This document shows positions 1,717-21,721 of a stretch of 64,000 nt of DNA, one piece after another. Under the pieces are notes generated by a model. That model did not search any database. It worked only from the letters and a program-made list of their open reading frames with translations, and was not told the origin of the DNA. The stretch spans positions 11,546 to 75,545 of the forward strand of contig JAPPQH010000010.1 in the NCBI GenBank assembly GCA_028817035.1, given 5' to 3'. The translations under genes and the position numbers were made by a program. This stretch comes from Candidatus Campbellbacteria bacterium (GTDB lineage Bacteria; Patescibacteriota; Minisyncoccia; Phycocordibacterales; JABAAK01). Numbering within the stretch: the stretch's first letter is position 1; each line of letters opens with the position of its first letter.

Positions 1717-1953
1717 CCCCTGTCAAGCACGCAAAACCTGCTTGACATTAAGCCAGTAATTTATGCTTTTATTCTCTAACAAGTACTTATATAGGTGACA
1801 ATCAGAAAAGTTTAAAGGCAAAGATAGTTTATATAAACTATCCGAAAAAACTTTTTTGTTTTAGGAAGATGAGGAGGAGAAAGGTTTTTTCTTGGATAAT
1901 GACTAGAATCAATATTGAATATTGAGTTCGCGCTTCGCGCTCACACTATTTTC

Positions 1954-2838: not shown

Positions 2839-2951
2839 AGTTTATCCGATTTCCCCATATAAATACTTGTTAAAGAACAAAATTAACAAACAAAAGTCAT
2901 ATCAAAACACCAATGTTTATTAACTACTATTTAATTATAGCATACTTTTAT
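2839..2951 (-). promoter_or_regulatory. putative CRISPR leader / array promoter (AT-rich, TATAAT on minus strand)
   Basis: 113-nt AT-rich spacer between cas1 stop and first cas-proximal repeat; minus strand reads ...gtatgcTATAATtaaatag. Degenerate terminal repeat lies at the opposite (1955) end. Confidence 0.35.
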
Positions 2952-7698: not shown

Positions 7699-7735
7699 AA
7701 AAAAAAAGCCCCGAGGCTCGAAGAGCACTCGGGGC
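7699..7735 (-). terminator. Rho-independent terminator for gene 7761..8234
   Basis: GC hairpin gccccgag-N12-ctcggggc (7708-7735) followed on minus strand by T9 (A-run 7699-7707 on plus). Confidence 0.7.
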
Positions 7736-7760
7736 GTAATTCGGTTAGAGGAGAAACGGT

Positions 7761-8234
7761 TTATTCACCATCCTGTGTTGAGTCAGCATCCTGCATCAAC
7801 TTCATAAACTCGTCTCGCGCAACCTCGTTTTGTTCCTGGTTGCGTTCACTATAACCTTCGTTTGCAGCATCTCGCAAATCACTCTCTGCAGGACCGATTT
7901 CAGGTGTTGGAGCTTTGTCATACTCTCGGACTTGCTCCTCAAGCAGAGGATTTGCGGGCTGTATCACCGTTTTGGGTCGATACCCCATTTCTACCTGTGA
8001 GTAGATAATGGCTGCCGCAAAAAACACCATCCAGAGACCGATGCACCACTTGTTTGACCAAAGTACATCGCCGACTGGAGACGCTCTTTCGCTTCCGTCA
8101 ACCATTTTGGGGTCTGCTTGCTCCACTTGGTTCGCCATCCTGCGCCAAATAGCAACTGCCGAAACAATCACTACAAGCCACAGAACAACTTTGATAAGAG
8201 CAAACCCAAAGACTGAGATGGCAGTGATATCCAT
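7761..8234 (-). CDS. hypothetical membrane protein (2 TM, acidic C-terminus), co-operonic with SPFH protein
   Basis: 157 aa; higher-GC than genome background; 13-nt gap to upstream SPFH gene. Confidence 0.5.
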   Translation of the reverse strand: MDITAISVFGFALIKVVLWLVVIVSAVAIWRRMANQVEQADPKMVDGSERASPVGDVLWSNKWCIGLWMVFFAAAIIYSQVEMGYRPKTVIQPANPLLEEQVREYDKAPTPEIGPAESDLRDAANEGYSERNQEQNEVARDEFMKLMQDADSTQDGE

Positions 8235-8246
8235 AACATACCTCCT

Positions 8247-9200
8247 TTACTTTTCTTGGTTCGATTCTGCCATGGCGTTGTTGAGTGTGCCCATAAGGAC
8301 TGCGGGATTCTTAAATCCCTCGAAGGGCATTACAAAGACACGACCATCTGGATTTTTGGCGAGTGTCTCCATAATCTTCAACCAACGCTGAGTGACAAAT
8401 GGTTCACTCACACTGTCAGCAAGTACGCGATTGACAAGCGCTTGAGTTTCTGCCTCCTTGAGGTCAACCTCCTGTTGTTTTTTAGCAACTTCAAGGGCAG
8501 CATCTGCCTGTTTCAAAGCTATCTGCTTTTCAGCTTCAGCTTTTTGAATCCCGATTTCGCGTTCTTTTCTGTTTTCCTGAGCAGTGACAACGATTTGGGG
8601 TGGCTGAATATCAGCCAAACCAAACCTTATGGTCGTGATAGGAGTCGATTTCAAACGCTCACGAATATCCTTCACAAGCATAGCAGAAATTTCGCTTCGG
8701 TTTTCCATCACCTGTGCGATACTGTGCTCGGCAAGGATTGAGCGGACTGCTTCACGAACGACCGGCTGTCCATAGGTGTTGTAGACCTTTGCCATTGAAA
8801 TCAGTCGGACACGATTGCTTGGTTGTTGGTCGGCAGTCACACGACTAAAGACCTTTTCAACATTTTCTTTGTCAGAGCTGATTGCAAACACGCCACGCAC
8901 ATCCACATTGAGGTTCAGTTGGTCCTTTGGCATAAAGATTACCATCTGTTCCAAAACCGCATGGTCTGATGCCTCAACGAGGATGAGAGAGTCACAGTTC
9001 CAACAAAAACCTTCCAGCCTAAACTTTGAAGGCTGTATGATCTTTTCTTGAAGACCAGACTCAGTCGAGAGTTTGCCGACATGGGCAGGTGGCACTTCAA
9101 CTCTCTCGCCACACCCCCCCATGGCAAACATGCCCAGCAAAATTGCCATCATTGCAATAGTTTTTTTCACGAGTTTTCCTCCTCTGTGTAAAAGGTTCAA
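8247..9200 (-). CDS. SPFH/band-7 (stomatin/prohibitin-like) lipoprotein
   Basis: 317 aa; signal peptide with lipobox-like AMGGC; band-7 core and long Ala/Glu/Lys coiled-coil (EREIGIQKAEAEKQIALKQADAALEVAKKQQEVDLKEAE); GC-rich. Confidence 0.7.
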   Translation of the reverse strand: MNLLHRGGKLVKKTIAMMAILLGMFAMGGCGERVEVPPAHVGKLSTESGLQEKIIQPSKFRLEGFCWNCDSLILVEASDHAVLEQMVIFMPKDQLNLNVDVRGVFAISSDKENVEKVFSRVTADQQPSNRVRLISMAKVYNTYGQPVVREAVRSILAEHSIAQVMENRSEISAMLVKDIRERLKSTPITTIRFGLADIQPPQIVVTAQENRKEREIGIQKAEAEKQIALKQADAALEVAKKQQEVDLKEAETQALVNRVLADSVSEPFVTQRWLKIMETLAKNPDGRVFVMPFEGFKNPAVLMGTLNNAMAESNQEK

Positions 9201-9363
9201 AACATGGGCTTTCTCAAGCCCAATGCTATTTTATAGAATAGCATATATATTGAAAAATATCAAGTACCCATATTTATGGCAAAAACCCTTTTTGCAACTC
9301 TTCGGTTTGGTGGCACAAAGGCACTTTGTGTGGGTGGAGTTGTTGGTCTTATGTTATGAAAAA

Positions 9364-9921
9364 TTATATTGATAGTTTTTTTCTTGCGGTTTCAAATAGA
9401 GTTAGAGTTTCGTCAGACAAAATGAAAGGTATGAAACGCTCTTTGTCTTCTTCGGCGAGTCTCGGAAGTATTTCAACGCTCCACACTTCAAAACCTAATA
9501 TCTCCCCCTCTTCTACGACAAGCGCCTCAATAGGTTGTGTGTGTGTGTATGCGTATTGCGCTCTGATGGTGTTGTTTATTAAACCTGTAGTTGTGTCTAT
9601 GGAACGCTCTGCGCTTTTAGTAAGAAAAATTAGTTCGCTTGAGTCAATGTCAATTCCTGTTTCTTCTCTGCATTCTTTGACGGCTGTTTCCTCGTAGGAC
9701 ATCCCTGGTTCAACATGACCACCCACACTGGCATCCAGTCGGTCTGGATATGTGTCTTTGTTTTTTGCTCTGTGTTGAAAGATAATTTCACCTCTCGGAG
9801 TAAAAAACCAAATATGCACTTCTCTGTGGAGTAGTCCCTCTTTGTGTATCTTTGTGCGATTTTCAAGACCAATAACTTCGTCTTGCTCGTTCACAACTTC
9901 AAGCATCTCATTATTGTTCAT
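9364..9921 (-). CDS. Nudix hydrolase
   Basis: 185 aa; Nudix box GGHVEPGMSYEETAVKECREETGI (Gx5Ex7REUxEExGU). Confidence 0.85.
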   Translation of the reverse strand: MNNNEMLEVVNEQDEVIGLENRTKIHKEGLLHREVHIWFFTPRGEIIFQHRAKNKDTYPDRLDASVGGHVEPGMSYEETAVKECREETGIDIDSSELIFLTKSAERSIDTTTGLINNTIRAQYAYTHTQPIEALVVEEGEILGFEVWSVEILPRLAEEDKERFIPFILSDETLTLFETARKKLSI

Positions 9922-10399: not shown

Positions 10400-10485
10400 A
10401 GGGATAATTATATACTATATTTTTTTAACAAACATTGTCTGCCTGTTTTGACTTTTGTGACTTTTATAAATAAACAGCGACCTTG

Positions 10486-10557
10486 TGACCCTACGGGGAA
10501 TCGAACCCCGATTTTCGCCGTGAAAGGGCGATGTCCTGGCCGTTAGACGATAGGGCC
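10486..10557 (-). tRNA. tRNA-Glu (anticodon UUC)
   Basis: Reverse complement folds as GGCCCTA/TAGGGTC acceptor, anticodon stem TCGCC/GGCGA with loop CTTTCAC, T-arm CGGGG-TTCGATT-CCCCG; CCA not encoded. Confidence 0.8.
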
Positions 10558-10612
10558 AATGATAAGATTATACTCTAAAATTATAAACCCTTCCCAGTTA
10601 TGGGAAGGGTTG

Positions 10613-10685
10613 TGACCCAGCGGGGATTTGAACCCCGATTTTCGCCTTGAAAGGGCGATGTCCTCACCGGTTAGACGACAGGGTC
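10613..10685 (-). tRNA. tRNA-Glu (anticodon UUC), second copy with divergent acceptor stem
   Basis: Anticodon arm TCGCC-CTTTCAA-GGCGA; T-arm CGGGG-TTCAAAT-CCCCG; acceptor GACCCTG/CTGGGTC has one T-T mismatch in the canonical register (alternative register GTGACCC/GGGTCAC is perfect but gives non-canonical junctions). Confidence 0.6.
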
Positions 10686-11798: not shown

Positions 11799-12971
11799 AT
11801 GAGGTTGTTCGCTATTGAGACAAGTTGCGATGAAACTGCTGTTTGTTTTTTGGATGCGGTAGAGAAAGATGGTGGCGATCACAAGATAGAGGTTCTGTCT
11901 CATATATTAATCTCACAGGCAGAGAAACACGCTGAATATGGTGGCGTGTTCCCTACTCTTGCGAAACGCGAGCATGCTAAAAATCTTGTTCCCATCACTT
12001 TGAAAGCGCTTGAAGAGGTGGGTGTAGAAAAGGTTGGCGACAGGGTTATGGATAAAAATGATGAGGAGAAAATTGGAAAAATTCTTGAACGGGAGGAGGA
12101 GTTAAAGGAAAGTTTTATTGAGGAAATTGCGAAGTGTGGGGTGCCTGATGTGGATGCTATCGCTGTTTGTGTCGGTCCTGGTTTAGAGCCAACCCTTTGG
12201 GTGGGTATCAATTTTGCAGAGGCGCTTTCTGTTTTGTGGGATAAGCCGATAATACCTGTGAATCATATGGAGGGACACATTGTGTCTTCATTTTTTGATA
12301 ACAATACTTTGAAAAAATTTCCTATGCCGTTGCTTTCGCTTTTAATTTCTGGAGGACATACAGAGCTTGTCCTTTCAGAGAAACAAAATGATTATAGAAA
12401 AATTGGTTCCACGAGAGATGATGCTGTTGGTGAGAGTTTTGACAAGGTGGCGAGGCTTCTTGGTCTTTCTTATCCAGGGGGTCCTGAGGTGGCAAGGTTG
12501 GCAAGTCTATCACGCACAAGGGCTAAAAAGATTGATGTGAGATTTCCACGCCCAATGATAAAAGATGATGGTTTTGATTTCTCTTTCTCTGGTCTTAAAA
12601 CAGCGGTCAGGTATTTTGTTGAGGGAAAAAATTTAACTGATGCGGAGAAAGAAGATGTTGCTTGTGAGTTTGAGGATGCAGTCACAGAGGTCCTTGTGAC
12701 AAAGACAAAAATGGCTATTTTGAAACACCGACCGAGTGCGCTTGCCGTTGGCGGTGGCGTGGCTGCAAACAAGAATATAAAGGAGGCTATGACAAAGATG
12801 GTGGCGGAGCTTGATTTCCCTGTTTCGCTCCACATACCAAAACCAAAAGATGCGACTGACAACGCGATAATGATTGGTCTGTCGGGTTATCTCAACTCAA
12901 TGCAGAAAGATTATGGAATGGCTGTGTATGAGATAAGGGCTGACAGTTCCCTCTCATATCTAAAAAACTGA
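11799..12971 (+). CDS. tsaD: tRNA N6-adenosine threonylcarbamoyltransferase TsaD (Kae1/Gcp family)
   Basis: 390 aa; N-terminal IETSCDETAV and metal-binding region, 6-nt gap after rhodanese gene. Confidence 0.9.
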   Translation: MRLFAIETSCDETAVCFLDAVEKDGGDHKIEVLSHILISQAEKHAEYGGVFPTLAKREHAKNLVPITLKALEEVGVEKVGDRVMDKNDEEKIGKILEREEELKESFIEEIAKCGVPDVDAIAVCVGPGLEPTLWVGINFAEALSVLWDKPIIPVNHMEGHIVSSFFDNNTLKKFPMPLLSLLISGGHTELVLSEKQNDYRKIGSTRDDAVGESFDKVARLLGLSYPGGPEVARLASLSRTRAKKIDVRFPRPMIKDDGFDFSFSGLKTAVRYFVEGKNLTDAEKEDVACEFEDAVTEVLVTKTKMAILKHRPSALAVGGGVAANKNIKEAMTKMVAELDFPVSLHIPKPKDATDNAIMIGLSGYLNSMQKDYGMAVYEIRADSSLSYLKN

Positions 12972-13017
12972 GATTTACAAATTAGGAAAAACTAAATAAA
13001 TTGTATATTATATAGAT

Positions 13018-15216
13018 ATGGACGAGAAATTTTTGTCACCTTACGACCCTAAAAAATACGAGGGCGAGATTTATAAAAAATGGGAAAATAGCGGTTATTT
13101 TAACCCTGACAAGTGTGTAGCAGATGGTATCACAAGCCCTGATGCAGAGCCTTTTTGTATAGTTCTTCCCCCTCCAAATGTAACAGGTGTTTTGCATACC
13201 GGTCATGCTATGGTTGTTGCGGTTGAGGATCTTTTGATTCGCTACAACAGGATGAAGGGAAAAAGGACTCTGTGGATTCCAGGGACAGACCACGCTGCCA
13301 TCGCGACACAGGCGAAGGTGGAGAAGATTTTATACAAAGAGGAGAAAAAAACAAAGGAGGATTTGGGTAGAGAGAAATTTTTAGAATTGGTTAAAAAATT
13401 TGCAAAAGATAATTACAACACAATAGTTAGCCAGATAAGAAGGTCTGCTGCATCTCTTGATTGGAGTCGCGAGGCATACACACTTGATGAAAAGAGAGAG
13501 AAAGCAGTTTATACCGCTTTCAAAAGAATGTATGATGCAGGAATTATTTATCGTGGTAATCGCATAGTTAATTGGGATCCAAAATTGAAGACTTCTGTTT
13601 CTAATGATGAGATTGAATACAAGCAGGAGGTCTCCCCTTTTTATTATTTGAAATATGGACCGTTTGTTATTGGAACTTCAAGACCAGAAACAAAGTTTGG
13701 TGATAAATATGTGGTTGTTCATCCAGATGACAAAAGATACACGGAATACAAGCATGGACAAAAGATAAGTGTGGATTGGATAAATGGAAAGGTTGAGGCG
13801 ACAGTAATAAAAGATGAGTCAATTGATATGGAACTTGGAACAGGTGCGATGACTATAACCCCATGGCATGATGAAACTGACTATGAGATAGCAGAGAGGC
13901 ACAATCTTGATAAAGAACAGATTATTGATTTTAGGGGCGTCCTGCTCCCTATCGCCGGCGAGTTTGAGGGGATGCATATTAAAAAAGCAAGGGATAAGAT
14001 AGTAGAGAAATTCAAATCTCTTGGTCTGCTTGAAAAGATTGACGAAAAATACGAGCATAACATAGCGACAAATTCAAGGGGTGGTGGGATAATTGAGCCA
14101 CAGATAAAAGAGCAATGGTTTCTGGGGCTTGAAAGAGAGTTTGTCCTTGAGAAGTCAAATATAAAAGGGGTTAAATCGGGAGATAAAACAACGCTCAAAA
14201 AAATATTGTTGTGTGCTGTTGAAAATGGTCAGATAGAGATTTTGCCTGAGAGATATTCAAAAGTTTATTTTAATTGGATAAATAATATAAAAGATTGGTG
14301 CATCAGCAGACAGATATGGTTTGGGCATCGCATACCTGTATGGTATAAAGGTGATGATATACATTGTGACGCTGTTGCGCCTAAGGGTGATGGATGGGAA
14401 CAGGATTCTGACACATTGGACACATGGTTTTCTTCTGGGCTGTGGACTTTCTCAACACTTGGATGGCCAGACACAAAAGAAAAAGATTTTCAGGTGTATC
14501 ACCCTACCTCAACCCTTACGACTGGTTATGATATTTTAATTTTTTGGATTGTTAGGATGATACTTATGAGTGGTTTTTGTGTTGGCGATATTCCCTTTAA
14601 GACCGTATATCTGAATGGTCTTGTGAGAGATGAAAAAGGAAGGAAGATGAGTAAGTCGCTTGGCAACGCCATCAACCCTATTGATGTGATAGAGAAATAT
14701 GGAAATGATGCTCTTCGTTTTTCTATTCTTGTAAGCTCTACCCCAGGAAATGATCTGAATTTTTCAGATGACAGAGTGAAGTCGGCAAAACATTTTGCTA
14801 ACAAGATATGGAATATAACAAGGTTTATTCTTTCAAATATGCCTTCAAATTATGATTTTGAAAAAGATGTGGAATTTACAGACAAAGATTTGGTGCTGCA
14901 TAAAGAACTTCAAGTCCATATAAAACATGTTACTGACAATATTGATTCTTACTCATTTCACCTTGCGGCTGAGAAGTTGTATGCTTATGTCTGGCACAAT
15001 TTGGCGGATGTCATAATTGAAGAAAGCAAGGAGGTGTTGAACGGGCAGGACGAAGCCGCAAAGCAATCACGGGCAAGGGTGCTTTATGAAATCCTTACCA
15101 CAAACCTTAAAATGCTCCACCCGTTTATGCCGTCTATAACTGAGGAAATATGGTCTTCCCTGCCTCATAAAAATATGGACTTGCTTATGGTTGAAAAATG
15201 GCCCAAGTTGTCATAA
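13018..15216 (+). CDS. valS: valine--tRNA ligase (compact form)
   Basis: 732 aa class I aaRS; PPPNVTGVLHTGHA (HIGH) typical of ValRS and KMSKS (RKMSKSLGN); shorter than typical ValRS (no C-terminal coiled coil). Confidence 0.75.
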   Translation: MDEKFLSPYDPKKYEGEIYKKWENSGYFNPDKCVADGITSPDAEPFCIVLPPPNVTGVLHTGHAMVVAVEDLLIRYNRMKGKRTLWIPGTDHAAIATQAKVEKILYKEEKKTKEDLGREKFLELVKKFAKDNYNTIVSQIRRSAASLDWSREAYTLDEKREKAVYTAFKRMYDAGIIYRGNRIVNWDPKLKTSVSNDEIEYKQEVSPFYYLKYGPFVIGTSRPETKFGDKYVVVHPDDKRYTEYKHGQKISVDWINGKVEATVIKDESIDMELGTGAMTITPWHDETDYEIAERHNLDKEQIIDFRGVLLPIAGEFEGMHIKKARDKIVEKFKSLGLLEKIDEKYEHNIATNSRGGGIIEPQIKEQWFLGLEREFVLEKSNIKGVKSGDKTTLKKILLCAVENGQIEILPERYSKVYFNWINNIKDWCISRQIWFGHRIPVWYKGDDIHCDAVAPKGDGWEQDSDTLDTWFSSGLWTFSTLGWPDTKEKDFQVYHPTSTLTTGYDILIFWIVRMILMSGFCVGDIPFKTVYLNGLVRDEKGRKMSKSLGNAINPIDVIEKYGNDALRFSILVSSTPGNDLNFSDDRVKSAKHFANKIWNITRFILSNMPSNYDFEKDVEFTDKDLVLHKELQVHIKHVTDNIDSYSFHLAAEKLYAYVWHNLADVIIEESKEVLNGQDEAAKQSRARVLYEILTTNLKMLHPFMPSITEEIWSSLPHKNMDLLMVEKWPKLS

Positions 15217-15259
15217 ATTGTGATACAATTTTTAATAAGTAAGATTTTTTAAAATAAAT

Positions 15260-15742
15260 ATGAAAAATAAAAAAAGCAAAAAGAAAAAAGGGTTCAGTTT
15301 TTTTGAGTTGTTGACTGGGACAAACGAAGACGAACTGGAAGAGGAACTAAGTGATGAAGAAGAAGTAGAAGGGGGTGAAACAAGCAGGGCTTTACCTCAA
15401 AATGAAGATGAGGAGCGACACTTGCCGGTTGATTTGATAAACACGCCAGACGACATAATAATCAGAGCAAATCTTGCAGGGATTAACCCCGACAATATAG
15501 ATCTTTCAGTATCAAGAGAGGTTATTATAATTACCGCGAAAAATGCAAGAAAGCATGAAGAACAAGAATGTGATTATTTTTATCAAGAATTATATTGGGG
15601 AACTTTATCAAGGACTATTGTTCTGCCACAGGAAATAGAGGTAGAAGATGTTACTGCAGATACAAAGAATGGGATGCTTACCATTGTGCTTCCAAAAATA
15701 GATAAAGATAAAAAGACAAAGGTTAGGGTTTCTAAGAGATAA
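15260..15742 (+). CDS. Hsp20/alpha-crystallin family small heat-shock protein
   Basis: 160 aa; acidic N-terminus then alpha-crystallin domain LPVDLINTPDDIIIRANLAGINPDNIDLSV...GMLTIVLPK. Confidence 0.85.
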   Translation: MKNKKSKKKKGFSFFELLTGTNEDELEEELSDEEEVEGGETSRALPQNEDEERHLPVDLINTPDDIIIRANLAGINPDNIDLSVSREVIIITAKNARKHEEQECDYFYQELYWGTLSRTIVLPQEIEVEDVTADTKNGMLTIVLPKIDKDKKTKVRVSKR

Positions 15743-15751
15743 AAATAAAAA

Positions 15752-15794
15752 GGCATCGCCTCCAAAACCACTTGTGGTTTTTTCAGCGATGCCC
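15752..15794 (+). terminator. nested-hairpin terminator after hsp20
   Basis: ggcatcgc...gcgatgcc outer stem enclosing aaaacca-cttg-tggtttt followed by T-run. Confidence 0.55.
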
Positions 15795-15808
15795 GCCCTT
15801 GCGTGCGG

Positions 15809-16054
15809 CTATCCGCTTATGGGATTCTCCTGCAAGAGTTGTTCGCAGTAGGCTGCGACCTGAGGGTCCCTCTTTCGCATCTCCTGCCTATCGTCGGAAG
15901 ACAGTGCTCTATATGTGCGAAGCAACTCCGTGTCCTTCTGGGGTCTTATCAACCACAAAAGAAATGTCTCCATGCTAACTGAACGGTCGTACTCTATGGG
16001 CTCTACAGCCACACTAGAATCCATCCCTTCTGGGATGTGCTCTACAGTTTTCAT
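15809..16054 (-). CDS. small hypothetical protein in GC-rich patch (start moved to RBS-supported ATG)
   Basis: ORF track 15809..16099; internal Met (MKTVEH...) preceded by AAGGAGG at 7 nt and a TTGACA -35 element upstream; GC content well above background. Confidence 0.4.
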   Translation of the reverse strand: MKTVEHIPEGMDSSVAVEPIEYDRSVSMETFLLWLIRPQKDTELLRTYRALSSDDRQEMRKRDPQVAAYCEQLLQENPISG

Positions 16055-16448
16055 ACCTTTTTCCTCCTTTTGAAGAATGAAAAGTTCAGTGATGGACAAA
16101 CTGCCATCTTCTATAATGTTACTACAAACTCTTTAATTTGTCAAGTAGTTCCAAAAATGAAAAGATCCAAGCGGAATGCTTGGCTCTTTGGTTCAACTGC
16201 AGGACGAGAAAATGCAGACCGCAGCATCAGCGATATAAACGGTTGTTATCAAAGCGATGACGGTAATCAAGGACTTGTCAAAATCGTCAAAACCTGAGTC
16301 TTCTGAGGTATGTTTTTCATTCATACCATTTACCCTCCTGTTTTGAAAAGATTATTCGGCAACGAGTTGCCTTCTATTATTAAGTATAGGGTATATAAAT
16401 GTTGGTGTCAAATGAAAAGAGCCAAGCAAATGGAATAGATTGGAATGT

Positions 16449-16611
16449 GTAAGTCTGACCGCAACGAGCCTGCGAGTTGCGTCAAGCGTTCAAATAGTGA
16501 AGTAATGGGTTGGAGGGCGTGAAACTTGACCTTTGCGAGCTTGCGAGCAAAATCAAGCGAGTGGCGAAGCCACGAGCGATAATAAATAAGGTGTGCCGAG
16601 AGTGGGTCTCG
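16449..16611. repeat. diverged tandem copy of the tRNA-Phe 3'-flank, ending in a 19-nt duplicate of the tRNA-Phe 3' end (gtgccgagagtgggtctcg, 16593-16611)
   Basis: taagtctgaccgcaacgagcctgcgagttgcgtcaagcg at 16449-16487 and 16704-16742; gtgccgagagtgggtctcg at 16593-16611 and 16787-16805 (the latter inside tRNA-Phe). Confidence 0.6.
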
Positions 16612-16786
16612 GCGTCAAGTTTCTAAACTCGCTATCGCTCGTTAAGAACTTCCTGCCCAAATTTGCGATATAGCAAAAGTGATAGATTGGGAGAGAATAA
16701 GTCTGACCGCAACGAGCCTGCGAGTTGCGTCAAGCGAACAGCGGAGCTGTTCGCGTTAATAAATAGAAGCGAGTGAAACGAGCGAG

Positions 16787-16859
16787 TGCCGAGAGTGGGT
16801 CTCGAACCCACGACCCCTTGTTCTTCAGACAAGTGCTCTACCAACTGAGCTATCTCGGC
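16787..16859 (-). tRNA. tRNA-Phe (anticodon GAA)
   Basis: Reverse complement: GCCGAGA/TCTCGGC acceptor, D-arm GCTC-AGTTGGTA-GAGC, anticodon arm CTTGT-CTGAAGA-ACAAG, T-arm GTGGG-TTCGAGA-CCCAC, discriminator A. Confidence 0.85.
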
Positions 16860-16868
16860 GGATTTTGG

Positions 16869-17183
16869 TTAGTTCTCTTTATTTTCAGGTGGAACGACAA
16901 GATTGTCAATCACTTCAACAACGGCTTTATATCTTTCTGTTTCATCTTCTATTTTTTCTTCAACACTTTCAACTTTCTGTTCAAATGCCCTGAACACATC
17001 TATTGCTGGGACAACAAAATTTATAGTTCCGTAGTAACCAAAAGCAATCACGATTATAATAAACAAAAAACGAATTATGCTCCCTATCGCAGTGGATCTC
17101 CTGAGAGCACGCAACAATCTATAGTTCTCACGAGATAACTTTATGTTTTGTTTCAATAGTTTTTCTATTTCTTCGTTGTTCAT
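16869..17183 (-). CDS. hypothetical small membrane protein with coiled-coil
   Basis: 104 aa, one central TM segment, no motif. Confidence 0.4.
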   Translation of the reverse strand: MNNEEIEKLLKQNIKLSRENYRLLRALRRSTAIGSIIRFLFIIIVIAFGYYGTINFVVPAIDVFRAFEQKVESVEEKIEDETERYKAVVEVIDNLVVPPENKEN

Positions 17184-17209
17184 TTTAATCTTGTTTATTC
17201 CGAACTCCC

Positions 17210-17283
17210 TGGTCTCCCTGCCAGGAATCGAACCTGAATCTGATCCTTAGGAGGGATCTGTTTTTCCCTTAAACTACAGGGAG
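17210..17283 (-). tRNA. tRNA-Arg (anticodon CCU), CCA encoded
   Basis: Reverse complement: CTCCCTG/CAGGGAG acceptor, anticodon arm GATCC-CTCCTAA-GGATC, T-arm TCAGG-TTCGATT-CCTGG, discriminator A followed by genomically encoded CCA. Confidence 0.8.
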
Positions 17284-17291
17284 CTTGATTG

Positions 17292-17528
17292 TTATAATCC
17301 CAACGCTTTCTTCAACGCATCTTCATCAAAACCTATAATCATTTCTTCACCAACAAATGTAACCGGTATGTGTGCTTGACCGCTGCGTTCTGTTAATTCT
17401 GCCCTCTTTTCTTCGTCTTCAAGAATGTTGATTTCTTTGAAATCTATTTTATTTTCTTCCAAAAAATCTTTCACCTGAACACAGAAAGGACAGGTTGGGC
17501 TGCTGTAAACTTCTACTTTTTTATCCAT
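17292..17528 (-). CDS. glutaredoxin (NrdH/Grx-like thioredoxin-fold protein)
   Basis: 78 aa; CPFC active site (YSSPTCPFCVQVKDFL). Confidence 0.8.
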   Translation of the reverse strand: MDKKVEVYSSPTCPFCVQVKDFLEENKIDFKEINILEDEEKRAELTERSGQAHIPVTFVGEEMIIGFDEDALKKALGL

Positions 17529-17583
17529 ATTTATTACTGATAAATCTTAATTTAATTGTAATAATATAGAAAGTATACCACTT

Positions 17584-17979
17584 TTAGAAAGAGACATCAA
17601 AGGAATATGTGCTGTCTTTAGGAAAGGTTTTTGGTTTATTATCGCCATTTTTCCTCTCTTTCTCATATATGAGAATGAGCTTTTCGCCCTCACCTGATAT
17701 ATTCAAGTAATCGCGGATTTTCTGCTCACGGCTGAATGGGTTTTTTAGGTTTTCTATTTCCGCCATAATTGATGCGTTATGCTGGCTTGTTTCTATGAGT
17801 TTGTTGGTATGTACCCTGTCTATTCTCCACGCATATATGGTCTTTTTTGCGGAATCTATAAGTGAAGGAAGGAGTATGAGGATAAACAACAGCAAAACAC
17901 CATAGTGGAAGATGCTGGATTTAAAGAAACTGCGTTTATAAAATCTTCGCCTTAATGTCATACTAATATGATATAACAA
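17584..17979 (-). CDS. hypothetical single-TM protein, possibly FtsL/DivIC-like septum formation initiator
   Basis: 131 aa; basic N-terminus, one TM, short extracytoplasmic coiled-coil region; weak assignment. Confidence 0.3.
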   Translation of the reverse strand: MLYHISMTLRRRFYKRSFFKSSIFHYGVLLLFILILLPSLIDSAKKTIYAWRIDRVHTNKLIETSQHNASIMAEIENLKNPFSREQKIRDYLNISGEGEKLILIYEKERKNGDNKPKTFPKDSTYSFDVSF

Positions 17980-18148
17980 AAATGCTGATTAATGTGATAT
18001 AATTAGGAAATAATAAATGTATTAAGAATACTATGGAAAAAATGAGAAAAATAATAGCGACAATAATAGCGATATTGCTCGCGATAATAATGATAGCTTC
18101 TTTATTCCTGCCGTTCTTCTATTAATATTTGCAGTATTTATAGGGGGG

Positions 18149-18177
18149 TTGACAAGATTGGGGTTGTTTGATATACT
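18149..18177 (+). promoter_or_regulatory. sigma70-type promoter TTGACA-N17-TATACT for first REC/zinc-finger gene
   Basis: Direct reading 18149-18154 TTGACA, 18172-18177 TATACT; the whole promoter/5'UTR block is duplicated at 19164-19330. Confidence 0.55.
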
Positions 18178-18315
18178 CAAAAATAGTACTGCTCTTTCAC
18201 AAAAAAGGAGGTAAAAGGCAGACAAAGAATTTATGTTTTGAAAGGGTGCCCTTAGGTGCCCAAAATGCCACTCGCAACCGTGAGTGGTCCCACAAACCAA
18301 CAAAAGGAGAACGGT

Positions 18316-19089
18316 ATGCAAAAGCAAACCAACCCTGCCCTGGGTAAAGAGGGCACCACCCCCCTTCGCGTTCTCGTCATTGATGACAGCGAACGCCACC
18401 AAAAGAGTGCGCGACTCACCCTCGCGGACCACGATCTCACGATCGTTGGGACTTACGAGGAGGCAGAGAAGATCCTGCTTCCTGCCATCTATAAGGCAGG
18501 TGGCCCGAAGGTGGAGGAAGAGATGGAGCGTCTCGGTTTTAGCACTGACGTTAAGTCATACAAGGACTGGGAAGAGTTCCGCAAGGTCCAGAAAGAAATC
18601 GCCAAGAAGCTCTTCCCGACCTTTGACGCAGTCCTCTGCGACCTGCTTATGCCAGTGGTGCATATGTCGGTTTTGAGGGAGCAGAAGAATGAGGAGTATG
18701 CCGGGGAGGAAATGCCCTTCGGCTTCAGCCTCGCTTTCCAGGCAGCTAAGCATGGTGCGAAGTATGTGGCGGTTGTGACTGACACCGGTCATCACGACCA
18801 CCCTGCATCCGCAATGCTTGACCCCCTAAGTTTTAAGGTTCAATTCACAATTACCGGCTTCCATCGCCATCGCGGTGTAACAACTGGCGACAGATATGGT
18901 GCTGCTGTAGGTTTCTACAACAGCCCAAAGATGGTGGAAGTGGAAGGGGTATGCCATGCCTGCGACGGCACTGGACAACGGCATGACAGCGAATACAAGT
19001 GCCCGACCTGCAGAGGGTCTGGCAGCGCTCGGGGTAAGGACTGGGGGTGTATCCTCAAGAAACTCCTTGCCGCTGGCGAGACTGCCTGA
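18316..19089 (+). CDS. receiver (REC)-like domain protein with C-terminal DnaJ-type CxxCxGxG zinc-finger pair, paralog 1
   Basis: ATG at 18316 with AAGGAG RBS (ORF track starts at an upstream GTG, 18256). RVLVIDDSE beta1-like, VLCDLLMP phospho-acceptor-like Asp, His-rich TDTGHHDHP, C-terminal CHACDGTG...CPTCRGSGSARG; ~55 percent GC. Confidence 0.6.
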   Translation: MQKQTNPALGKEGTTPLRVLVIDDSERHQKSARLTLADHDLTIVGTYEEAEKILLPAIYKAGGPKVEEEMERLGFSTDVKSYKDWEEFRKVQKEIAKKLFPTFDAVLCDLLMPVVHMSVLREQKNEEYAGEEMPFGFSLAFQAAKHGAKYVAVVTDTGHHDHPASAMLDPLSFKVQFTITGFHRHRGVTTGDRYGAAVGFYNSPKMVEVEGVCHACDGTGQRHDSEYKCPTCRGSGSARGKDWGCILKKLLAAGETA

Positions 19090-19111
19090 CACCTCCGACG
19101 ACGACCACACG

Positions 19112-19153
19112 GCCGCTCAAGAGCTTTTGCTTGCGAGCGGTCGTTTTTATTTT
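19112..19153 (+). terminator. Rho-independent terminator after paralog 1
   Basis: gccgctc...gagcggtc hairpin followed by gtttttatttt. Confidence 0.6.
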
Positions 19154-19163
19154 AATCTTGGGC

Positions 19164-19193
19164 TTGACAAGATTGGGGGTCTTGTGCTACAAT
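19164..19193 (+). promoter_or_regulatory. sigma70-type promoter TTGACA-N18-TACAAT for paralog 2
   Basis: 19164-19169 TTGACA, 19188-19193 TACAAT; preceded by the same ttttattttaatcttggg junction as the paralog-3 promoter. Confidence 0.55.
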
Positions 19194-19331
19194 TAAAAAT
19201 AGTACTGCTCTTTCACAAAAAAGGAGGTAAAAGGCAGACAAAGAATTTATGTTTTGAAAGGGTGCCCTTAGGTGCCCAAAATGCCACTCGCAACCGTGAG
19301 TGGTCCCACAAACCAACAAAAGGAGAACGGT

Positions 19332-20117
19332 ATGCAAAAGCAAACCAACCCTGCCCTGGGTAAAGAGGGCACCACCCCCCTTCGCGTTCTCGTCATTGAT
19401 GACAGCGAACGCCACCAAAAGAGCGCCCGACTCACCCTCGCGGACCACGATCTCACAATCATCGAGACGCATCAGGAGGCGCTTGTGACCTTGAATCGGG
19501 AAGATTTTCCCAGGCTTTATAGCAAAAAGGTGAAGGAAGAGATGGAGTGTCTCGAGCTTAACCCCGATTCATATGGGAGTCCGAGTGAGTATCTTAGGGC
19601 ATGTGACAAGGCAAGGGAGGAGATTGTTAACAAGCACTTTCCACCCTTTGCCTTTGATGTCGTCCTCTGCGATCTGTTCATGAAGCCAGCGGCAAATATA
19701 GTGAACACCATGGATGGTAGAGAAAGCTTGAGGTGGAGGAAGGAGAAGTTTGCCCGAGAGGAAATGCCGGCTGGTTTCGGTCTTGTCCTCATGGCAGTGG
19801 ACAACCCCTTTCATAGTGTGAAGTATGCGGCGGTTGTGACTGATACCAATCACCATGACCACCCTGTTTCTGCTATGCTTGACTATGTAACCCATAGTCA
19901 AGGAGAGAAACCTCGCTTCAAAATCAACGGAGCGACGGTAGGTTTCTACAACAGCCCAGAGATGGTGGAAGTGGAAGGGGTATGCCATGCCTGCGAAGGT
20001 ACTGGGCAAATTGACAGCGACTACGATTGCGAGACCTGCAGAGGGTCTGGCAACGCCCGGGGTAAGGACTGGGGACTCGTCCTCAAGGACCTCCTTGCCG
20101 CTGGCGAGACTGCCTAA
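19332..20117 (+). CDS. receiver (REC)-like domain protein with C-terminal DnaJ-type CxxCxGxG zinc-finger pair, paralog 2
   Basis: First ~40 codons and 5'UTR identical to paralog 1, then diverges; VVLCDLFMKP, TDTNHHDHP, CHACEGTGQ...CETCRGSGNARG. Confidence 0.6.
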   Translation: MQKQTNPALGKEGTTPLRVLVIDDSERHQKSARLTLADHDLTIIETHQEALVTLNREDFPRLYSKKVKEEMECLELNPDSYGSPSEYLRACDKAREEIVNKHFPPFAFDVVLCDLFMKPAANIVNTMDGRESLRWRKEKFAREEMPAGFGLVLMAVDNPFHSVKYAAVVTDTNHHDHPVSAMLDYVTHSQGEKPRFKINGATVGFYNSPEMVEVEGVCHACEGTGQIDSDYDCETCRGSGNARGKDWGLVLKDLLAAGETA

Positions 20118-20135
20118 CGCCTCCGACGACCACAC

Positions 20136-20178
20136 GACCGCTCAAAAGCTATGGCTTGCGAGCGGTCGTTTTTATTTT
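20136..20178 (+). terminator. Rho-independent terminator after paralog 2
   Basis: gaccgctc-N16-gagcggtc then gtttttatttt. Confidence 0.65.
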
Positions 20179-20188
20179 AATCTTGGGG

Positions 20189-20217
20189 TTGACATAAGAG
20201 ATTTAATATATTATCCT
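20189..20217 (+). promoter_or_regulatory. putative promoter (TTGACA, weaker -10) for third REC-like gene
   Basis: ggggTTGACAtaagagatttaatatattatcc; AAGGAGG RBS 8 nt before ATG 20253. Confidence 0.4.
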
Positions 20218-20252
20218 TAATTTAGCTGAACTTTTCAAAAAGGAGGAAAGAT

Positions 20253-20681
20253 ATGATTGTTAGCGTCTACATCGTGGACCATCGGATCCACAGGGCCAAA
20301 AGGCTCTGGAAACTTTCTGGCTGTGGGAATCGCAAAGATGCCTTTGAACTACTGCCTGCCGAACCGTTTAATTCTATTGAACGGACTTGCGAAAGGGTGA
20401 AGAATCTCAGACCAAATGTGATATTGGTCAATTATGACCTGGGGCAAGGTCGGCGTCTTAATGGCGTTAATGTTGTTCGTGCTCTTATCATTGAAGGGTA
20501 TAAAGGTCACATCGTCGCAAACTGTGCCAAAGGTGCTGAGAGATTCGGTCCATCTGGTGTGAAAGTGGATGGAGATACAAACAGAAAGCCTCGTGGTTTG
20601 TGGAATGCACTTGAGCAATCTCGCAAGTGGTATGATAAAAATAGACCACTGTTAGAGGTACCCTCAAGTCCATCTGCTTGA
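20253..20681 (+). CDS. single-domain receiver (REC)-like protein, degenerate
   Basis: 142 aa; VYIVDH (beta1-like), NVILVNYDLGQG (phospho-acceptor-like Asp), VVRALIIEGYKGHIVANCAKG; no output domain; GC-rich. Confidence 0.45.
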   Translation: MIVSVYIVDHRIHRAKRLWKLSGCGNRKDAFELLPAEPFNSIERTCERVKNLRPNVILVNYDLGQGRRLNGVNVVRALIIEGYKGHIVANCAKGAERFGPSGVKVDGDTNRKPRGLWNALEQSRKWYDKNRPLLEVPSSPSA

Positions 20682-20696
20682 TCCCACCCAACGAAC

Positions 20697-20740
20697 GACC
20701 TTCCGCGGTTATAAAAACTGCGGAAGGTCGTTTTTATTTT
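20697..20740 (+). terminator. Rho-independent terminator after third REC-like gene
   Basis: perfect 10-bp stem gaccttccgc / gcggaaggtc followed by tttttatttt. Confidence 0.8.
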
Positions 20741-20767
20741 GGTTTCTTTTGAGTATCTGTCTAGATC

Positions 20768-21721
20768 TTAATCTCCGTGGAAGATTGAGAGCATCATCCT
20801 AAGAACATGGTCTGGGAATGAGGAGTCGTAGTTCTTCCAACTGCTGTATTTGTCTAATTTAATTTTTTGTGGAAGGACATCAAACAATCCATAAACTGCA
20901 AATGGCCCTTGTTCTTTTTGAACTTTAACAATTTCTGCATACACAACATCATATAGGTCGTTGTAATATTCTGCTCCTTCTATGAGCAACTGTGGGTCTG
21001 TGGATTCTGTGTGTGTGCTTATCGCGTGTGTTATGTCCCATTCTTTTATGGTGTTTAAGATTTTTCTTGTTCCTGTGAAGTTCTTATCATCAACCCAGTT
21101 TTTATGTGTGATTTCCTTGTATTCATACATATCTGCTGTAAGAACAATTCCTTCGTCACGGAGAGCTATAACAGTAGTCGCGTCACCGTCTCCTGGTCCA
21201 AAGTGATATAAGTCAACTTTTTTGTCACCTATGTTTATCGTTCTTTGTGTTGTGAAGGTTTCATCTACTTCTGGGACATCACCGAGTGTGTTAAGGTCAA
21301 AGATTGGCTGACAATTTACATGACAATACACTCGCGCATCAGGAAAGATGCTTGTTCCTCCTGCATGGTCATAGTGTTCGTGTGTAAGAGCTATGTGAGA
21401 TACTGGTTTGTCCGTTAGTGTTGCTACATAACTTTTAAGGGCTTCTGCGCGTGGGTCGTTAGATGGATCTGTGATTAAGACATCATCGCCAGAGATTACA
21501 ATAAGACTGTTTGTGAAAAATCCAAACCAACTATAAACCCCATCAGTAAGTTTCTTTGAGGTTGGCTCTGAAGGGATCATTGGTTCTGAGTGATCGTGTC
21601 CGTCATCCATTTCCTTTCTGTCTTCAGAATAATAGGAATCATCTGTTTCACTTGTGCTGAAAAATATTGCTATTATGACAAGCACGACTATAAGTAATAT
21701 GATTATTGTTTTTGTATTCAT
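20768..21721 (-). CDS. metallo-beta-lactamase-fold hydrolase, membrane-anchored
   Basis: 317 aa; N-terminal TM; HxHxDH motif ALTHEHYDHAGG. Confidence 0.8.
   Translation of the reverse strand: MNTKTIIILLIVVLVIIAIFFSTSETDDSYYSEDRKEMDDGHDHSEPMIPSEPTSKKLTDGVYSWFGFFTNSLIVISGDDVLITDPSNDPRAEALKSYVATLTDKPVSHIALTHEHYDHAGGTSIFPDARVYCHVNCQPIFDLNTLGDVPEVDETFTTQRTINIGDKKVDLYHFGPGDGDATTVIALRDEGIVLTADMYEYKEITHKNWVDDKNFTGTRKILNTIKEWDITHAISTHTESTDPQLLIEGAEYYNDLYDVVYAEIVKVQKEQGPFAVYGLFDVLPQKIKLDKYSSWKNYDSSFPDHVLRMMLSIFHGD

Follow-up and report, generated by a model that had tools for sequence, protein, structure and literature searches.

How an intact tRNA gene came to be followed by an exact copy of its own 3' end, and whether the DNA beside it entered the chromosome as a mobile element, was examined at the locus between hsp20 and tRNA-Phe in a 64-kb stretch (hereafter the window) of DNA from a member of the candidate phylum Campbellbacteria. 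The initial annotation, made from the letters of the window, had read the locus as the remnant of an integrative element.

The tRNA-Phe gene and the copy of its 3' end

An intact tRNA-Phe (GAA) gene in which CCA is not encoded was identified on the minus strand at 16786 to 16859 by ARAGORN and Rfam (73.4 bits); its start differs by one base between the two calls (16786/7-16859, minus). A promoter-like site, TTGACA-17-GAAAAT, was found upstream of the gene at 16881 to 16909 on the minus strand. The last 19 nt of the gene, GTGCCGAGAGTGGGTCTCG (the proximal core, 16786-16804, minus), were reported in the initial annotation to recur in the same orientation, and this recurrence was exact. The distal core is located at 16593 to 16611 (minus), downstream of the gene and in direct orientation, and 174 nt (16612-16785) separate the two copies. 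These were the only exact occurrences of the 19-mer in the window; allowing up to 3 mismatches revealed no further site there, none of 100 shuffles yielded a match, and duplicated ends of other tRNAs were not found in the window. The copy extends from C56 in the T-loop to the discriminator A73 plus one further base, which places its boundary at the T-loop/junction sublocation reportedly described by Williams in 2002. A second tRNA or another known RNA at the copy, one of the outcomes that the initial annotation had set against its own reading, was rejected. In a search for a cloverleaf between 15700 and 16900 with ARAGORN and the Rfam tRNA model (E up to 10), only the bona fide tRNA-Phe was reported, and the Rfam 15 families matched nothing in the region except tRNAs, the best other hits scoring 14-21 bits, far under the gathering threshold.

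An intact tRNA gene followed by a direct terminal 3' fragment that starts in the T-loop is the signature of tyrosine integrases, for which the anticodon loop, the T-loop and the T/acceptor junction are the recognised crossover sublocations; T-loop/junction sites account for 1836 of 3919 islands (PMC4383910). The locus resembles the islands and prophages collected in Islander in having the same arrangement of an intact tRNA gene and a downstream direct fragment that runs from the T-loop to the 3' end. As demanded of those islands, the fragment lies downstream on the same replicon and in the same orientation, begins at a recognised sublocation (C56 to A73 plus one base), and has its unoccupied counterpart in related genomes, namely the distant relatives L016 (9 nt) and L036 (36 nt) (PMC4383910). 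Foreign-looking intervening DNA together with an empty site in relatives is likewise common to both. In contrast, Islander requires a tyrosine integrase gene between the tRNA and the fragment and a length of 2-200 kb (PMC4383910), whereas no such gene lies there and the repeats are separated by 174 nt within a variable segment of 1043 nt. Unlike in the islands, moreover, the distal part lacks a closing fragment and the flanks after both cores are homologous. The initial annotation had stated that no integrase is left; none was called within ~5 kb on either side, and no recombinase other than Cas1 was detected among the 16 larger ORFs of the window scanned against Pfam. By reading, no inverted-repeat core-type site resembling the T-stem was recognised immediately 5' of the distal core.

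A quite different origin of the 19-mer was suggested by a type V-D (Cas12d) locus with 18-nt spacers ~10 kb away in the window: the copy might be an orphan or degenerate crRNA whose 19-mer guides Cas12d to tRNA-Phe for regulation or homing. The sequence CGATAATAAATAAGGT, found just before the 19-mer on the plus strand, is similar to the CRISPR repeat CCCCGATAATAAGGGGAGATAAGGC minus 6 nt, and this pseudo-repeat directly adjoins the 19-mer in the correct orientation. The length of the 19-mer also falls within the range of Cas12d spacers, which are 17-19 nt long and are used with a 5'-TR PAM (bioRxiv 10.1101/2023.12.12.571249). However, the score of the pseudo-repeat ranked only fourth among the matches in the window, which is chance level, and the pseudo-repeat is missing the CCCC/GGGG hairpin, the GGGGAG half of which is absent. 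The target (16786-16804) is preceded by GA and not by a TR PAM, the 19-mer has no second repeat after it, and the homologous block in the 174-nt insert is not adjacent to the tRNA core. The CRISPR spacers gave no matches to the window and the fetched loci. An orphan Cas12d crRNA or self-targeting spacer was therefore rejected on account of the chance-level pseudo-repeat and the lack of a PAM, and we regard it as extremely unlikely. Saito et al. are said to have described in 2021 a delocalised crRNA of a type V-K CRISPR-associated transposon, consisting of a truncated repeat and a ~17-nt spacer matching a tRNA gene. The locus is similar to that case in its short tRNA-matching segment beside a truncated repeat-like sequence and in the type V effector of the genome. 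It differs in that the effector is Cas12d, Tn7-like genes and a PAM are absent, the resemblance to a repeat does not exceed chance, and the tRNA-matching segment is itself a direct genomic repeat, located 174 nt away from the tRNA.

A variable hotspot between hsp20 and tRNA-Phe

The hsp20 gene (15260-15742, plus) is followed by an inverted repeat with 20-bp arms at 15752 to 15793, a terminator shared by the convergent hsp20 and an 81-aa gene; this repeat forms the left-hand boundary of the variable segment. The 81-aa ORF (15809-16054, minus) belongs to cassette S4 (15809-16172, minus), and the initial annotation had correctly described it as a small gene with a ribosome-binding site and a TTGACA promoter: AGGAGG and a promoter-like TTGACA-17-TAACAT (16144 to 16116, minus) were found upstream. 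Cassette S3 (16155-16427, minus) contains a promoter, TTGACA-17-TATACT (16411 to 16383, minus), a ribosome-binding site, a 43-aa ORF with a hydrophobic C-terminus (16193-16324, minus) and a terminator-like hairpin (16167-16183, minus). An 18-nt direct repeat (16155-16172 and 16410-16427) delimits this cassette. S3 and S4 share homologous 5' regions (z=11), the promoter being duplicated along with them.

A homolog search, which had been proposed for the 81-aa protein, identified it as an orphan with no homolog outside its own organism among 5.8 billion sequences; homologs of the neighbouring 104-aa protein outside the organism were not found either. The 43-aa protein, also classed as an orphan, was looked up by exact sequence only. 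Neither the 81-aa nor the 43-aa protein matched a family in Pfam, PHROGs, NCBIfam or PADLOC, and comparison of the region with phage and plasmid collections yielded chance matches within coding regions only. The GC content is 0.45-0.52 over 15700-16100 and 16400-16900, compared with ~0.30-0.39 in the surroundings, so that the GC-rich patch of the initial annotation is real and the composition of the segment is foreign to its neighborhood.

The gene order TsaD-ValRS-(PrsW)-HSP20 / tRNA-Phe-small protein-tRNA-Arg-Grx is kept in most of the fetched relatives and is partly rearranged in L020 and L036. Amid this conserved order, the spacer from HSP20 to tRNA-Phe is 9 nt in L016, 36 nt in L036, 365 nt in L017, 1043 nt in the window, 1738 nt in L021 and 1801 nt in L019. 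Therefore, the gap between tRNA-Phe and hsp20 is a variable hotspot of this Parcubacteria lineage that holds lineage-specific, GC-richer DNA. The locus without the duplication, which the initial annotation had suggested looking for, was seen in the syntenic L016 and L036, where the site is essentially empty; both are distant relatives, with ValRS 63-65% identical. A tRNA-Phe fragment or an integrase was present in none of six relatives with variable hotspot content (0/6), so the content of the hotspot can change with no att scar being detectable.

Two related units and their origin

In the tRNA sense, the 174-nt insert (unit 1, 16612-16785, minus) consists of a T-rich block, hairpin X2, a 39-nt repeat with hairpin H3, and hairpin M1. 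X2 (GCGAACAGC GGA GCTGTTCGC; 16734-16754, plus) is closed by a GNA triloop, H3 (CGCAA CGAG-CCTG-CGAG TTGCG; 16708-16729, plus) lies within copy 2 of the repeat (16698-16736, plus), and M1 (GGAAGTTCTTAACGAGCGATAGCGAGTTTAGAAACTTGACGC; 16612-16655, minus) directly adjoins the distal core. Unit 1 contains no credible coding gene; its ORFs of 35-70 aa are mechanical, and one of them starts inside the tRNA. On the far side of the distal core, unit 2 (16412-16592, minus) is homologous to unit 1 and comprises a T-rich block, hairpin X1 (16561-16573), a degenerate repeat (16521-16559) with hairpin H2 (stem TTTG/CAAA, tip CGAG-CTTG-CGAG), a 32-nt spacer, and copy 1 of the 39-nt repeat with hairpin H1 (16450-16488). 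Copies 1 and 2 form an exact direct repeat, to which the third copy (16521-16559) is 64% identical, and hairpins with a CGAG...CGAG tip were found nowhere else in the window.

The diverged tandem copies of the flank described in the initial annotation were thus recovered as an exact 39-nt repeat within two alignable units: local alignment of unit 1 with unit 2 gave z=23 against shuffles, and the flank after each 19-nt copy is homologous. The identity between the units is a mosaic, with 19/19 in the core, 39/39 in the repeat and ~17/27 in the adjacent X hairpin, whose stem changes are compensatory. A 16-nt indel follows immediately after the core, and the terminal 60 nt of unit 1 have no counterpart after unit 2. 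By our own calculation, the probability of a perfect run of 39 nt at ~70% identity is ~1e-6.

Repeats of this kind may be collapsed or mis-joined by an assembler, and the initial annotation had named such an artefact as a possible objection. The window and a SPIRE scaffold are different assemblies of one sample and are identical over 12913-18233, the differences being a SNP at 12912 and an N-gap near 18234; the two therefore agree base for base across the region. Contigs from three other assemblies were 99.8-100% identical to the window up to their breaks at 16481, 16700, 16724, 16757 and 15850. Three of these five ends fall inside a copy of the 39-nt repeat, whereas those at 16757 and 15850 lie outside the copies. 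The 19-nt copy is supported by two assemblies of one read set only, the stretch 16482-16699 being spanned by no contig of the other three, and independent contigs over this stretch, sought via the small ORF products, were not found. On the other hand, an assembly with k=31 would break inside a real 39-nt repeat, and the other samples reproduce unit 1 beside the tRNA up to position 16700. The structure does not depend on a particular assembler, and an artefact is very improbable.

The homologous flanks differ from the prediction for a single attL/attR pair and call either for two related elements accreted in tandem or for a tandem duplication of local origin. In the latter case, the main rival explanation, tRNA-Phe and ~190 nt of its own 3' flank would have been duplicated without an integrase by unequal crossing-over or replication slippage, the downstream tRNA would have lost its first 55 nt, leaving the 19-nt stump, and further slippage would have generated the R sub-repeats and the S3/S4 cassettes. 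The homology runs past the tRNA end into both flanks, as if the flank had been in the duplicated unit, and other tandem duplications with similar periods (190-270 nt) occur in the same intergenic region without a link to att sites. Tandem tRNA genes are present elsewhere in the window, in the form of two tRNA-Glu genes 127 nt apart, and a partial tRNA copy close downstream with a homologous flank is also what a tandem tRNA duplication with a truncated pseudo-copy looks like. Moreover, in L017, where an att copy is absent, two sequences homologous to M1 lie downstream of tRNA-Phe; part of the insert could accordingly be ancestral flank. The lack of an integrase or att scar at the hotspot of any relative is equally in line with a duplication.

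However, the copy consists of the last 19 nt only and its boundary lies at a known integrase crossover position. A duplication followed by drift would spread differences evenly, so the mosaic of perfect 19- and 39-mers beside ~60% blocks favors site-specific recombination, which yields perfect cores by mechanism. The unmatched last 60 nt of unit 1 are a further difficulty for a duplication. Truncation at C56 is shared with an unrelated Acidobacteriota case carrying the same hairpin (see below), a coincidence of ~1 in 55 if the endpoints were random. Import is favored by the GC-richer orphan DNA, but a segment may have been both imported and duplicated. Duplication without an integrase is therefore a possible explanation, but a rather unlikely one.

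The best reading of the locus, to which we give about an even chance, is a decayed and tandemly accreted insertion of the integrase type with its crossover in the T-loop. Under site-specific recombination of the tyrosine-integrase type, the ~1.04 kb between hsp20 and tRNA-Phe would be accessory DNA acquired at the tRNA-Phe 3' end. The incoming elements would have brought the part of the tRNA that runs from C56 to its 3' terminus and so regenerated the gene, and the displaced copy would be the one seen at 16593-16611. Two related elements would lie in tandem: unit 1, reduced to 174 nt of hairpins, and unit 2 (from 16592 leftwards), which would keep the hairpin module and two orphan cassettes and would have lost its distal att copy. 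Loss of the integrase and any mobility genes would have left an inert scar, later reshaped by the local duplications that gave the R sub-repeat and the S3/S4 cassettes. We infer that an integrase made the repeat, that two insertions occurred in succession, and that the remainder was deleted. Precise excision at the 19-nt repeats would join ...GACCCACTCTCGGCAC to ACCTTATTTATTATCGC, the tRNA core then being joined to ACCTTATTTATT..., and the excised form would have the circle junction ...GAAACTTGACGC-CGAGACCCACTCTCGGCAC-TCGCTCGTTTCAC.

Such a scar has a parallel in CIMEs (cis-mobilizable elements), decayed remnants of ICEs or IMEs that keep attL and attR, and tandem accretion onto these integrase-less, att-flanked elements is a documented pathway (PMC5704250). 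The locus is similar to CIMEs in its perfect 19-nt direct repeats at a tRNA 3' end, here of putative att function, in the absence of an integrase, and in the tandem arrangement of a second related unit. Described CIMEs differ in being of kilobase scale, in coming from Firmicutes and in having a known cognate ICE or IME; the att sites here are putative and no cognate element is known. An element with the same att specificity was sought by exact match with the 19-mer in IMG/VR and with 20- and 26-mers in IMG/VR and Patescibacteria, and none was found. The initial annotation had proposed a search for circular elements carrying the 19-nt core; no circular form was found.

The initial interpretation as an integrative-element remnant stands in part. 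The 3' fragment beginning in the T-loop, the hotspot with empty sites, the GC-richer orphan DNA and the Acidobacteriota parallel speak for it, and the locus looks like a decayed mobile-element scar rather than a working system. Against it are the missing integrase and the homologous flanks; the distance of 174 nt, which is far below any autonomous element; the failure to find a related autonomous element, a circular form or a strain-level empty form of the segment; and the absence, at up to 3 mismatches, of a third core copy closing the distal, gene-carrying unit 2. If the integration reading is true, the locus illustrates on a small scale how elements integrate at a tRNA gene and accrete in tandem in a genome of the Candidate Phyla Radiation, where integrative elements are poorly documented.

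The capped hairpin in this and other genomes

The 12-nt hairpin tip CGAG-CYTG-CGAG is conserved while its stems covary: 73.8% of cells were paired around the invariant tip compared with 59.7% in shuffles (0/500 shuffles as high), and slid controls gave 30-45%. The tip presumably forms tandem sheared G.A pairs closing a CYUG tetraloop, and we take CGCAACGAGCCUGCGAGUUGCG to be the capped hairpin with this predicted cap. Within the window, compensatory changes distinguish H1 from H2 and X1 from X2, and the folding of the region surpasses that of shuffled sequences (z -3.2 for the minus and -2.3 for the plus strand).

These features raise the question of whether the hairpin array and the tRNA-like stump are a functional non-coding module and not debris, for example a co-transcribed 3' trailer or a small RNA, with the stump folding as an acceptor-stem minihelix that serves as a terminator or processing signal, or else a single-stranded DNA origin or priming signal from a mobile element. 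Together with two bases on its 5' side, the distal copy can pair as GCCGAGA-CCCAC-TCTCGGC, which reproduces all 7 bp of the acceptor stem and is followed by a T-rich tract, and the stump occupies the position of a terminator hairpin after the M motif in L017. In phage contigs, moreover, the tips sit beside iteron-like repeats. However, the two extra base pairs of the minihelix are a 1-in-16 chance expectation, the Rfam families remained unmatched even at E up to 10, and a convincing promoter or U-tract terminator for a discrete RNA was not found. The hairpin module is also absent at the locus from most relatives and is therefore dispensable. A functional module is accordingly improbable.

Outside this genome, the closest counterpart was found in the Acidobacteriota contigs L010-L012, in which a 78-nt insert separates tRNA-Lys from a 21-nt repeat of its 3' end; this repeat starts exactly at C56, as does the tRNA-Phe copy. 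An identical 22-mer, CGCAACTCGCAGGCTCGTTGCG, lies within that insert, 49 nt from the tRNA end, in Acidobacteriota and 57 nt from the tRNA end here. It is conceivable, though doubtful, that the 174-nt unit and the 78-nt insert represent one cross-phylum class of integrase-less mini-elements that insert at T-loop C56, duplicate the tRNA sequence between this base and the 3' terminus, and carry the capped hairpin ~50-57 nt from the tRNA. In such elements, the hairpin may be a recognition or structural module, common to phage non-coding regions, and mobilisation may occur in trans by an integrase encoded elsewhere.

The CGAG...CGAG tip was also found in non-coding regions of AT-rich phage contigs, where it is iteron-like in three of four, and the hairpin module is thus typical of mobile elements. 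The capped hairpin, which matches no Rfam family and is found both in phage non-coding regions and beside tRNA genes of three phyla, is the more useful lead; it could mark tRNA-targeting mini-elements, be an att-proximal module of integrative elements, or be an unusually stable cap that arises repeatedly. Nothing on the tip sequence was found in the literature. Exact scans with the repeat 26-mer and 20-mer gave no match in IMG/VR or in other Patescibacteria genomes, the 26-mer had none in GTDB genomes, and the M-motif halves gave chance or promoter-like matches only, IMG/VR included. The 20-mer matched GTDB genomes at one Acidobacteriota locus and at one Pseudarthrobacter locus near tRNA-Met, and no integrase was seen in the short stretches available around the Acidobacteriota and Pseudarthrobacter copies. 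Two more GTDB matches to the 20-mer lie inside coding sequence and are probably due to chance.

The duplicated 3' end of tRNA-Phe and its flanks

Of the five tRNA genes that ARAGORN and Rfam identified in the window, the minus-strand gene at 16786-16859 is tRNA-Phe(GAA), in which CCA is not encoded. The last 19 nt of this gene, GTGCCGAGAGTGGGTCTCG when written as the plus strand, occurred exactly twice in the window and in the same orientation, at 16786-16804 and 16593-16611, with 174 nt between the two cores. No third site with up to three mismatches was found in the window, and shuffled sequences yielded no match. In tRNA numbering, the copy extends from C56 of the T-loop to one base past the discriminator A73. 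Thus, the duplicated tRNA end described in the initial annotation is real. No 3'-end copy was detected for any of the other four tRNAs of the window. A tandem tRNA-Glu(TTC) pair was seen at 10485-10685 (127 nt apart; 88% identity over 60 nt), indicating that tandem tRNA duplication occurs in this genome.

The 3' flank of the tRNA gene was homologous to that of its 19-nt copy (local alignment z=23), and the two shared a perfect 39-nt direct repeat, R, at 16450-16488 and 16698-16736, which confirms the flank duplication noticed earlier; a third, 64% copy of R lies at 16521-16559. Read in the tRNA sense (minus strand), unit 1 (16612-16785) consists of a 16-nt spacer, a T-rich block (CTTCTATTTATTAA) and hairpin X2, an R unit (CGCTTGAC, hairpin H3, then GGTCAGACTTA...CCAATCTAT...TTTGCT), and a 60-nt stretch with hairpin M1 ahead of the 19-nt copy. 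Unit 2 (16412-16592), beyond the copy, consists of a T-rich block (CTTATTTATTAT) and hairpin X1, a degenerate R unit 2 with hairpin H2, and R unit 1 with hairpin H1. It is followed by the cassettes S3 (promoter, ribosome-binding site, 43-aa ORF and terminator) and S4 (promoter, ribosome-binding site and 81-aa ORF), which share homologous promoters, 5' UTRs and initial codons (z=11), and the segment ends in a convergent terminator with 20-bp arms common to the S4 side and hsp20. The 81-aa ORF, with its ribosome-binding site and TTGACA promoter-like site, had been described correctly; a homology search with its product, as initially suggested, returned only the protein itself, and neither the 81-aa nor the 43-aa protein matched the family libraries.

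The identity between the two units was strongly uneven: the core (19/19) and R (39/39) matched perfectly, but the X hairpins agreed at only about 17 of 27 positions. The X hairpins resemble GCGAAGC-type mini-hairpins, and their stems differ by compensatory changes (GAACAGC/GCTGTTC vs GTGGC/GCCAC). Similarly, H2 retains the loop of H1 on a stem that differs in sequence yet is still complementary.

The window, from a Candidatus Campbellbacteria MAG, and a SPIRE scaffold are different assemblies of one sample: position 12912 shows a SNP, and an N-gap lies at about 18234-18330. Between these points, across 12913-18233, the two agreed completely, making an assembly artefact unlikely. Contigs of three other assemblies, 99.8-100% identical to the window, ended at 16481, 16700 and 16724 (within the copies of R), 16757 and 15850, and none of them spanned 16482-16699; the 19-nt copy is therefore supported by two assemblies of one read set. 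One contig from another sample (MEGAHIT, k=141) ends at 16700, at most 2 nt from the boundary of R. Since a 39-nt repeat alone should not interrupt a k=141 assembly graph, this end may represent a population variant in which the repeats have recombined and 16450-16697 has been deleted.

The hsp20/tRNA-Phe site in related genomes

In the nearest relatives found, in which ValRS was just 63-65% identical, the gene order was largely kept (TsaD-ValRS-(PrsW)-HSP20 converging on tRNA-Phe, small membrane protein, tRNA-Arg, Grx, DivIC and LepA), the downstream portions differing in loci L020 and L036. The spacer from the hsp20 stop to the tRNA-Phe 3' end was 9 nt in L016, 36 nt in L036, 365 nt in L017, 1043 nt in the window, 1738 nt in L021 and 1801 nt in L019, and in L020 the segment was inverted. 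This wide variation indicates that the site is a hotspot and that the 1 kb of the window is lineage-specific. The near-empty spacers of L016 and L036 provide the related genomes without the duplication that had been called for, although these relatives are distant. The GC content of the segment was 0.45-0.52, compared with 0.30-0.39 around it. The relatives have neither a tRNA-Phe fragment nor an integrase at the hotspot.

L017 has the M hairpin twice downstream of its tRNA-Phe, oriented as in the window, and one copy (GGAAGTTCTTAACGAGCCTGCGAGTTTAGAAACTTGAC) is near-identical to M1 although the two genomes are deeply diverged. A GAA-triloop hairpin, GAGCGCGAAGCGCGAAC, occurs on the minus strand at window 1925-1955, right after the last CRISPR repeat, and is near-identical to GAGCACGAAGTGCGAAC inside the second M motif of L017 (9478-9508), from which it differs by a compensatory change of A-T to G-C. 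This likeness suggests that the small GC-rich hairpins form a lineage-wide family. In L019, cassettes repeated in tandem over about 1.8 kb fill the hotspot (7730-9520) and run opposite to the tRNA. They are made up of a terminator, a promoter, a ribosome-binding site and a small hydrophobic-peptide ORF, one example of which encodes 42 aa (8011-8139).

The capped hairpin and the origin of the duplication

In the 64-kb window, CGAG...CGAG-capped hairpins were confined to 16460-16729 (16460-16481, 16532-16551 and 16708-16729). In JGI metagenomes, exact matches to the 22-mer CGCAACGAGCCTGCGAGTTGCG were found in two soil contigs of 67% GC, and a 20-mer genome scan also retrieved an Acidobacteriota MAG. 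In L011 (100-310), tRNA-Lys(CTT) is separated by a 78-nt insert with the hairpin (161-184) from a 21-nt copy of its own 3' end, CGATTCCTACCGGGCTCACCA, which begins at C56 like the tRNA-Phe copy of the window. The same insert and copy follow tRNA-Lys remnants of 45 nt in L012 (1840-2015; hairpin 1958-1981) and 9 nt in L010 (1-145; hairpin 92-115), and the downstream flanks of the three contigs are unrelated. The distance from hairpin to tRNA end was 49 nt in Acidobacteriota vs 57 nt in the window. In L012, 17-nt direct repeats (GTGTGGCACTTCTTCCG), 438 nt apart, enclose the tRNA-Lys structure.

A Pseudarthrobacter chromosome (L013) carries the motif and an inverted variant (706-731 and 767-792) 70 nt upstream of tRNA-Met, among other repeats. 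The 16-mer core AACGAGCCTGCGAGTT was present in 10 IMG/VR contigs. In four AT-rich ones (31-34% GC), it caps hairpins with AT-rich stems unrelated to those of the window, next to the cap variants CGAG-CGTTAG-CGAG and CGAG-GACA-CGAG, and in three of the four (capped hairpins at L023 1548-1688, L027 2300-2382 and L031 1261-1292) iteron-like repeats abound in the surrounding non-coding region. Further members are at L017 9624-9655 and L026 10965-10990. When all 14 retrieved instances were examined, stems not being a selection criterion, the 8 positions flanking the core were paired in 73.8% of cases vs 59.7% after shuffling (0/500 shuffles as high) and 30-45% in slid controls.

The family thus has an invariant tip, CGAG-CYTG-CGAG, on covarying stems, with variants of 4-6-nt inner loops. 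Its members lie beside tRNA genes of three phyla (Patescibacteria, Acidobacteriota and Actinomycetota) and, in AT-rich phage contigs, within non-coding regions. No Rfam family matched, and a search of the accessible literature did not retrieve the tip sequence. Tandem sheared G.A pairs are most stable in the context 5'-CGAG/3'-GAGC, and the CUUG tetraloops form a classic family; therefore, the tip may be an exceptionally stable cap. Its recurrence by tRNA 3'-end duplications across phyla makes it the one element worth a systematic survey. The covarying stems, together with the acceptor-stem-like fold of the 19-nt stump, would also fit a functional RNA or single-stranded-DNA module. This is quite improbable, however, because the structure is dispensable in relatives and transcript signals were not found.

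A tyrosine integrase acting on a tRNA gene leaves a regenerated gene and a displaced terminal fragment in direct orientation, and T-loop/junction crossover sites represent about half of the mapped islands (PMC4383910). The locus showed this signature, whereas it failed to resemble an island in integrase content and size. The integration scar proposed in the initial annotation is accordingly reasonable and only partly supported. Decayed, att-flanked remnants lacking an integrase (CIMEs) and tandem accretion onto them have been documented (PMC5704250). There is about an even chance that the locus is such a decayed, tandemly accreted scar, for which we infer an integrase step, two insertions and deletions; insertion of two related elements would have produced the homology with which units 1 and 2 begin. 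We favour this model because it explains this homology, the perfect cores beside diverged arms, the foreign composition, the relatives' empty sites, and the identical C56 boundary in Acidobacteriota. Tandem duplication of the tRNA and its flank, with the second tRNA truncated afterwards, would account for the flank homology in a region rich in other local duplications, and would be consistent with the occurrence of the M motif in L017. Nevertheless, this history is rather unlikely, since it leaves unexplained the mosaic identity, the 60-nt end of unit 1 that lacks a counterpart, and the coinciding C56 boundary. As a tRNA-gene integration remnant, the feature would belong to a known kind and be of modest importance.

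The type V-D CRISPR-Cas locus and other features

A complete type V-D CRISPR-Cas locus was found on the minus strand at 1955-7650, comprising an array (1955-2840; 21 repeats CCCCGATAATAAGGGGAGATAAGG(C), period 43, 18-nt spacers), cas1 (2952-3995) and cas12d/CasY (3979-7650; NCBIfam NF033951, 1054 bits). Its scoutRNA was not located, and no spacer matched the window or any fetched locus with up to three mismatches. A link between the 19-nt copy and this system was considered because CGATAATAAATAAGGT, which equals the CRISPR repeat minus 6 nt, immediately precedes the 19-mer (16577-16611, plus strand). However, its similarity score was just the fourth highest of the window, it is without the hairpin half of the repeat, a TR PAM is missing at the tRNA target, and none of the spacers matches this region. 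The link was therefore rejected as extremely improbable, and the repeat-like sequence is probably due to chance.

A GC-rich insert (0.50-0.59) at 18100-21721, between the DivIC-like gene and LepA, is absent in L016 and L017. It encodes two paralogous proteins (277 and 281 aa) whose C-termini both carry a CxxCxGxG zinc-finger-like motif and whose genes are each preceded by a repeated upstream region, as well as a 142-aa product and a Lactamase_B protein; the N-gap of the SPIRE scaffold falls within it. In addition, 60-nt tandem repeat arrays (14 copies, 88% matches) are located at 61262-62114, within a long minus-strand ORF (61096-63552), and at 63780-64000, reaching the end of the window. These arrays likely encode a repeat protein.
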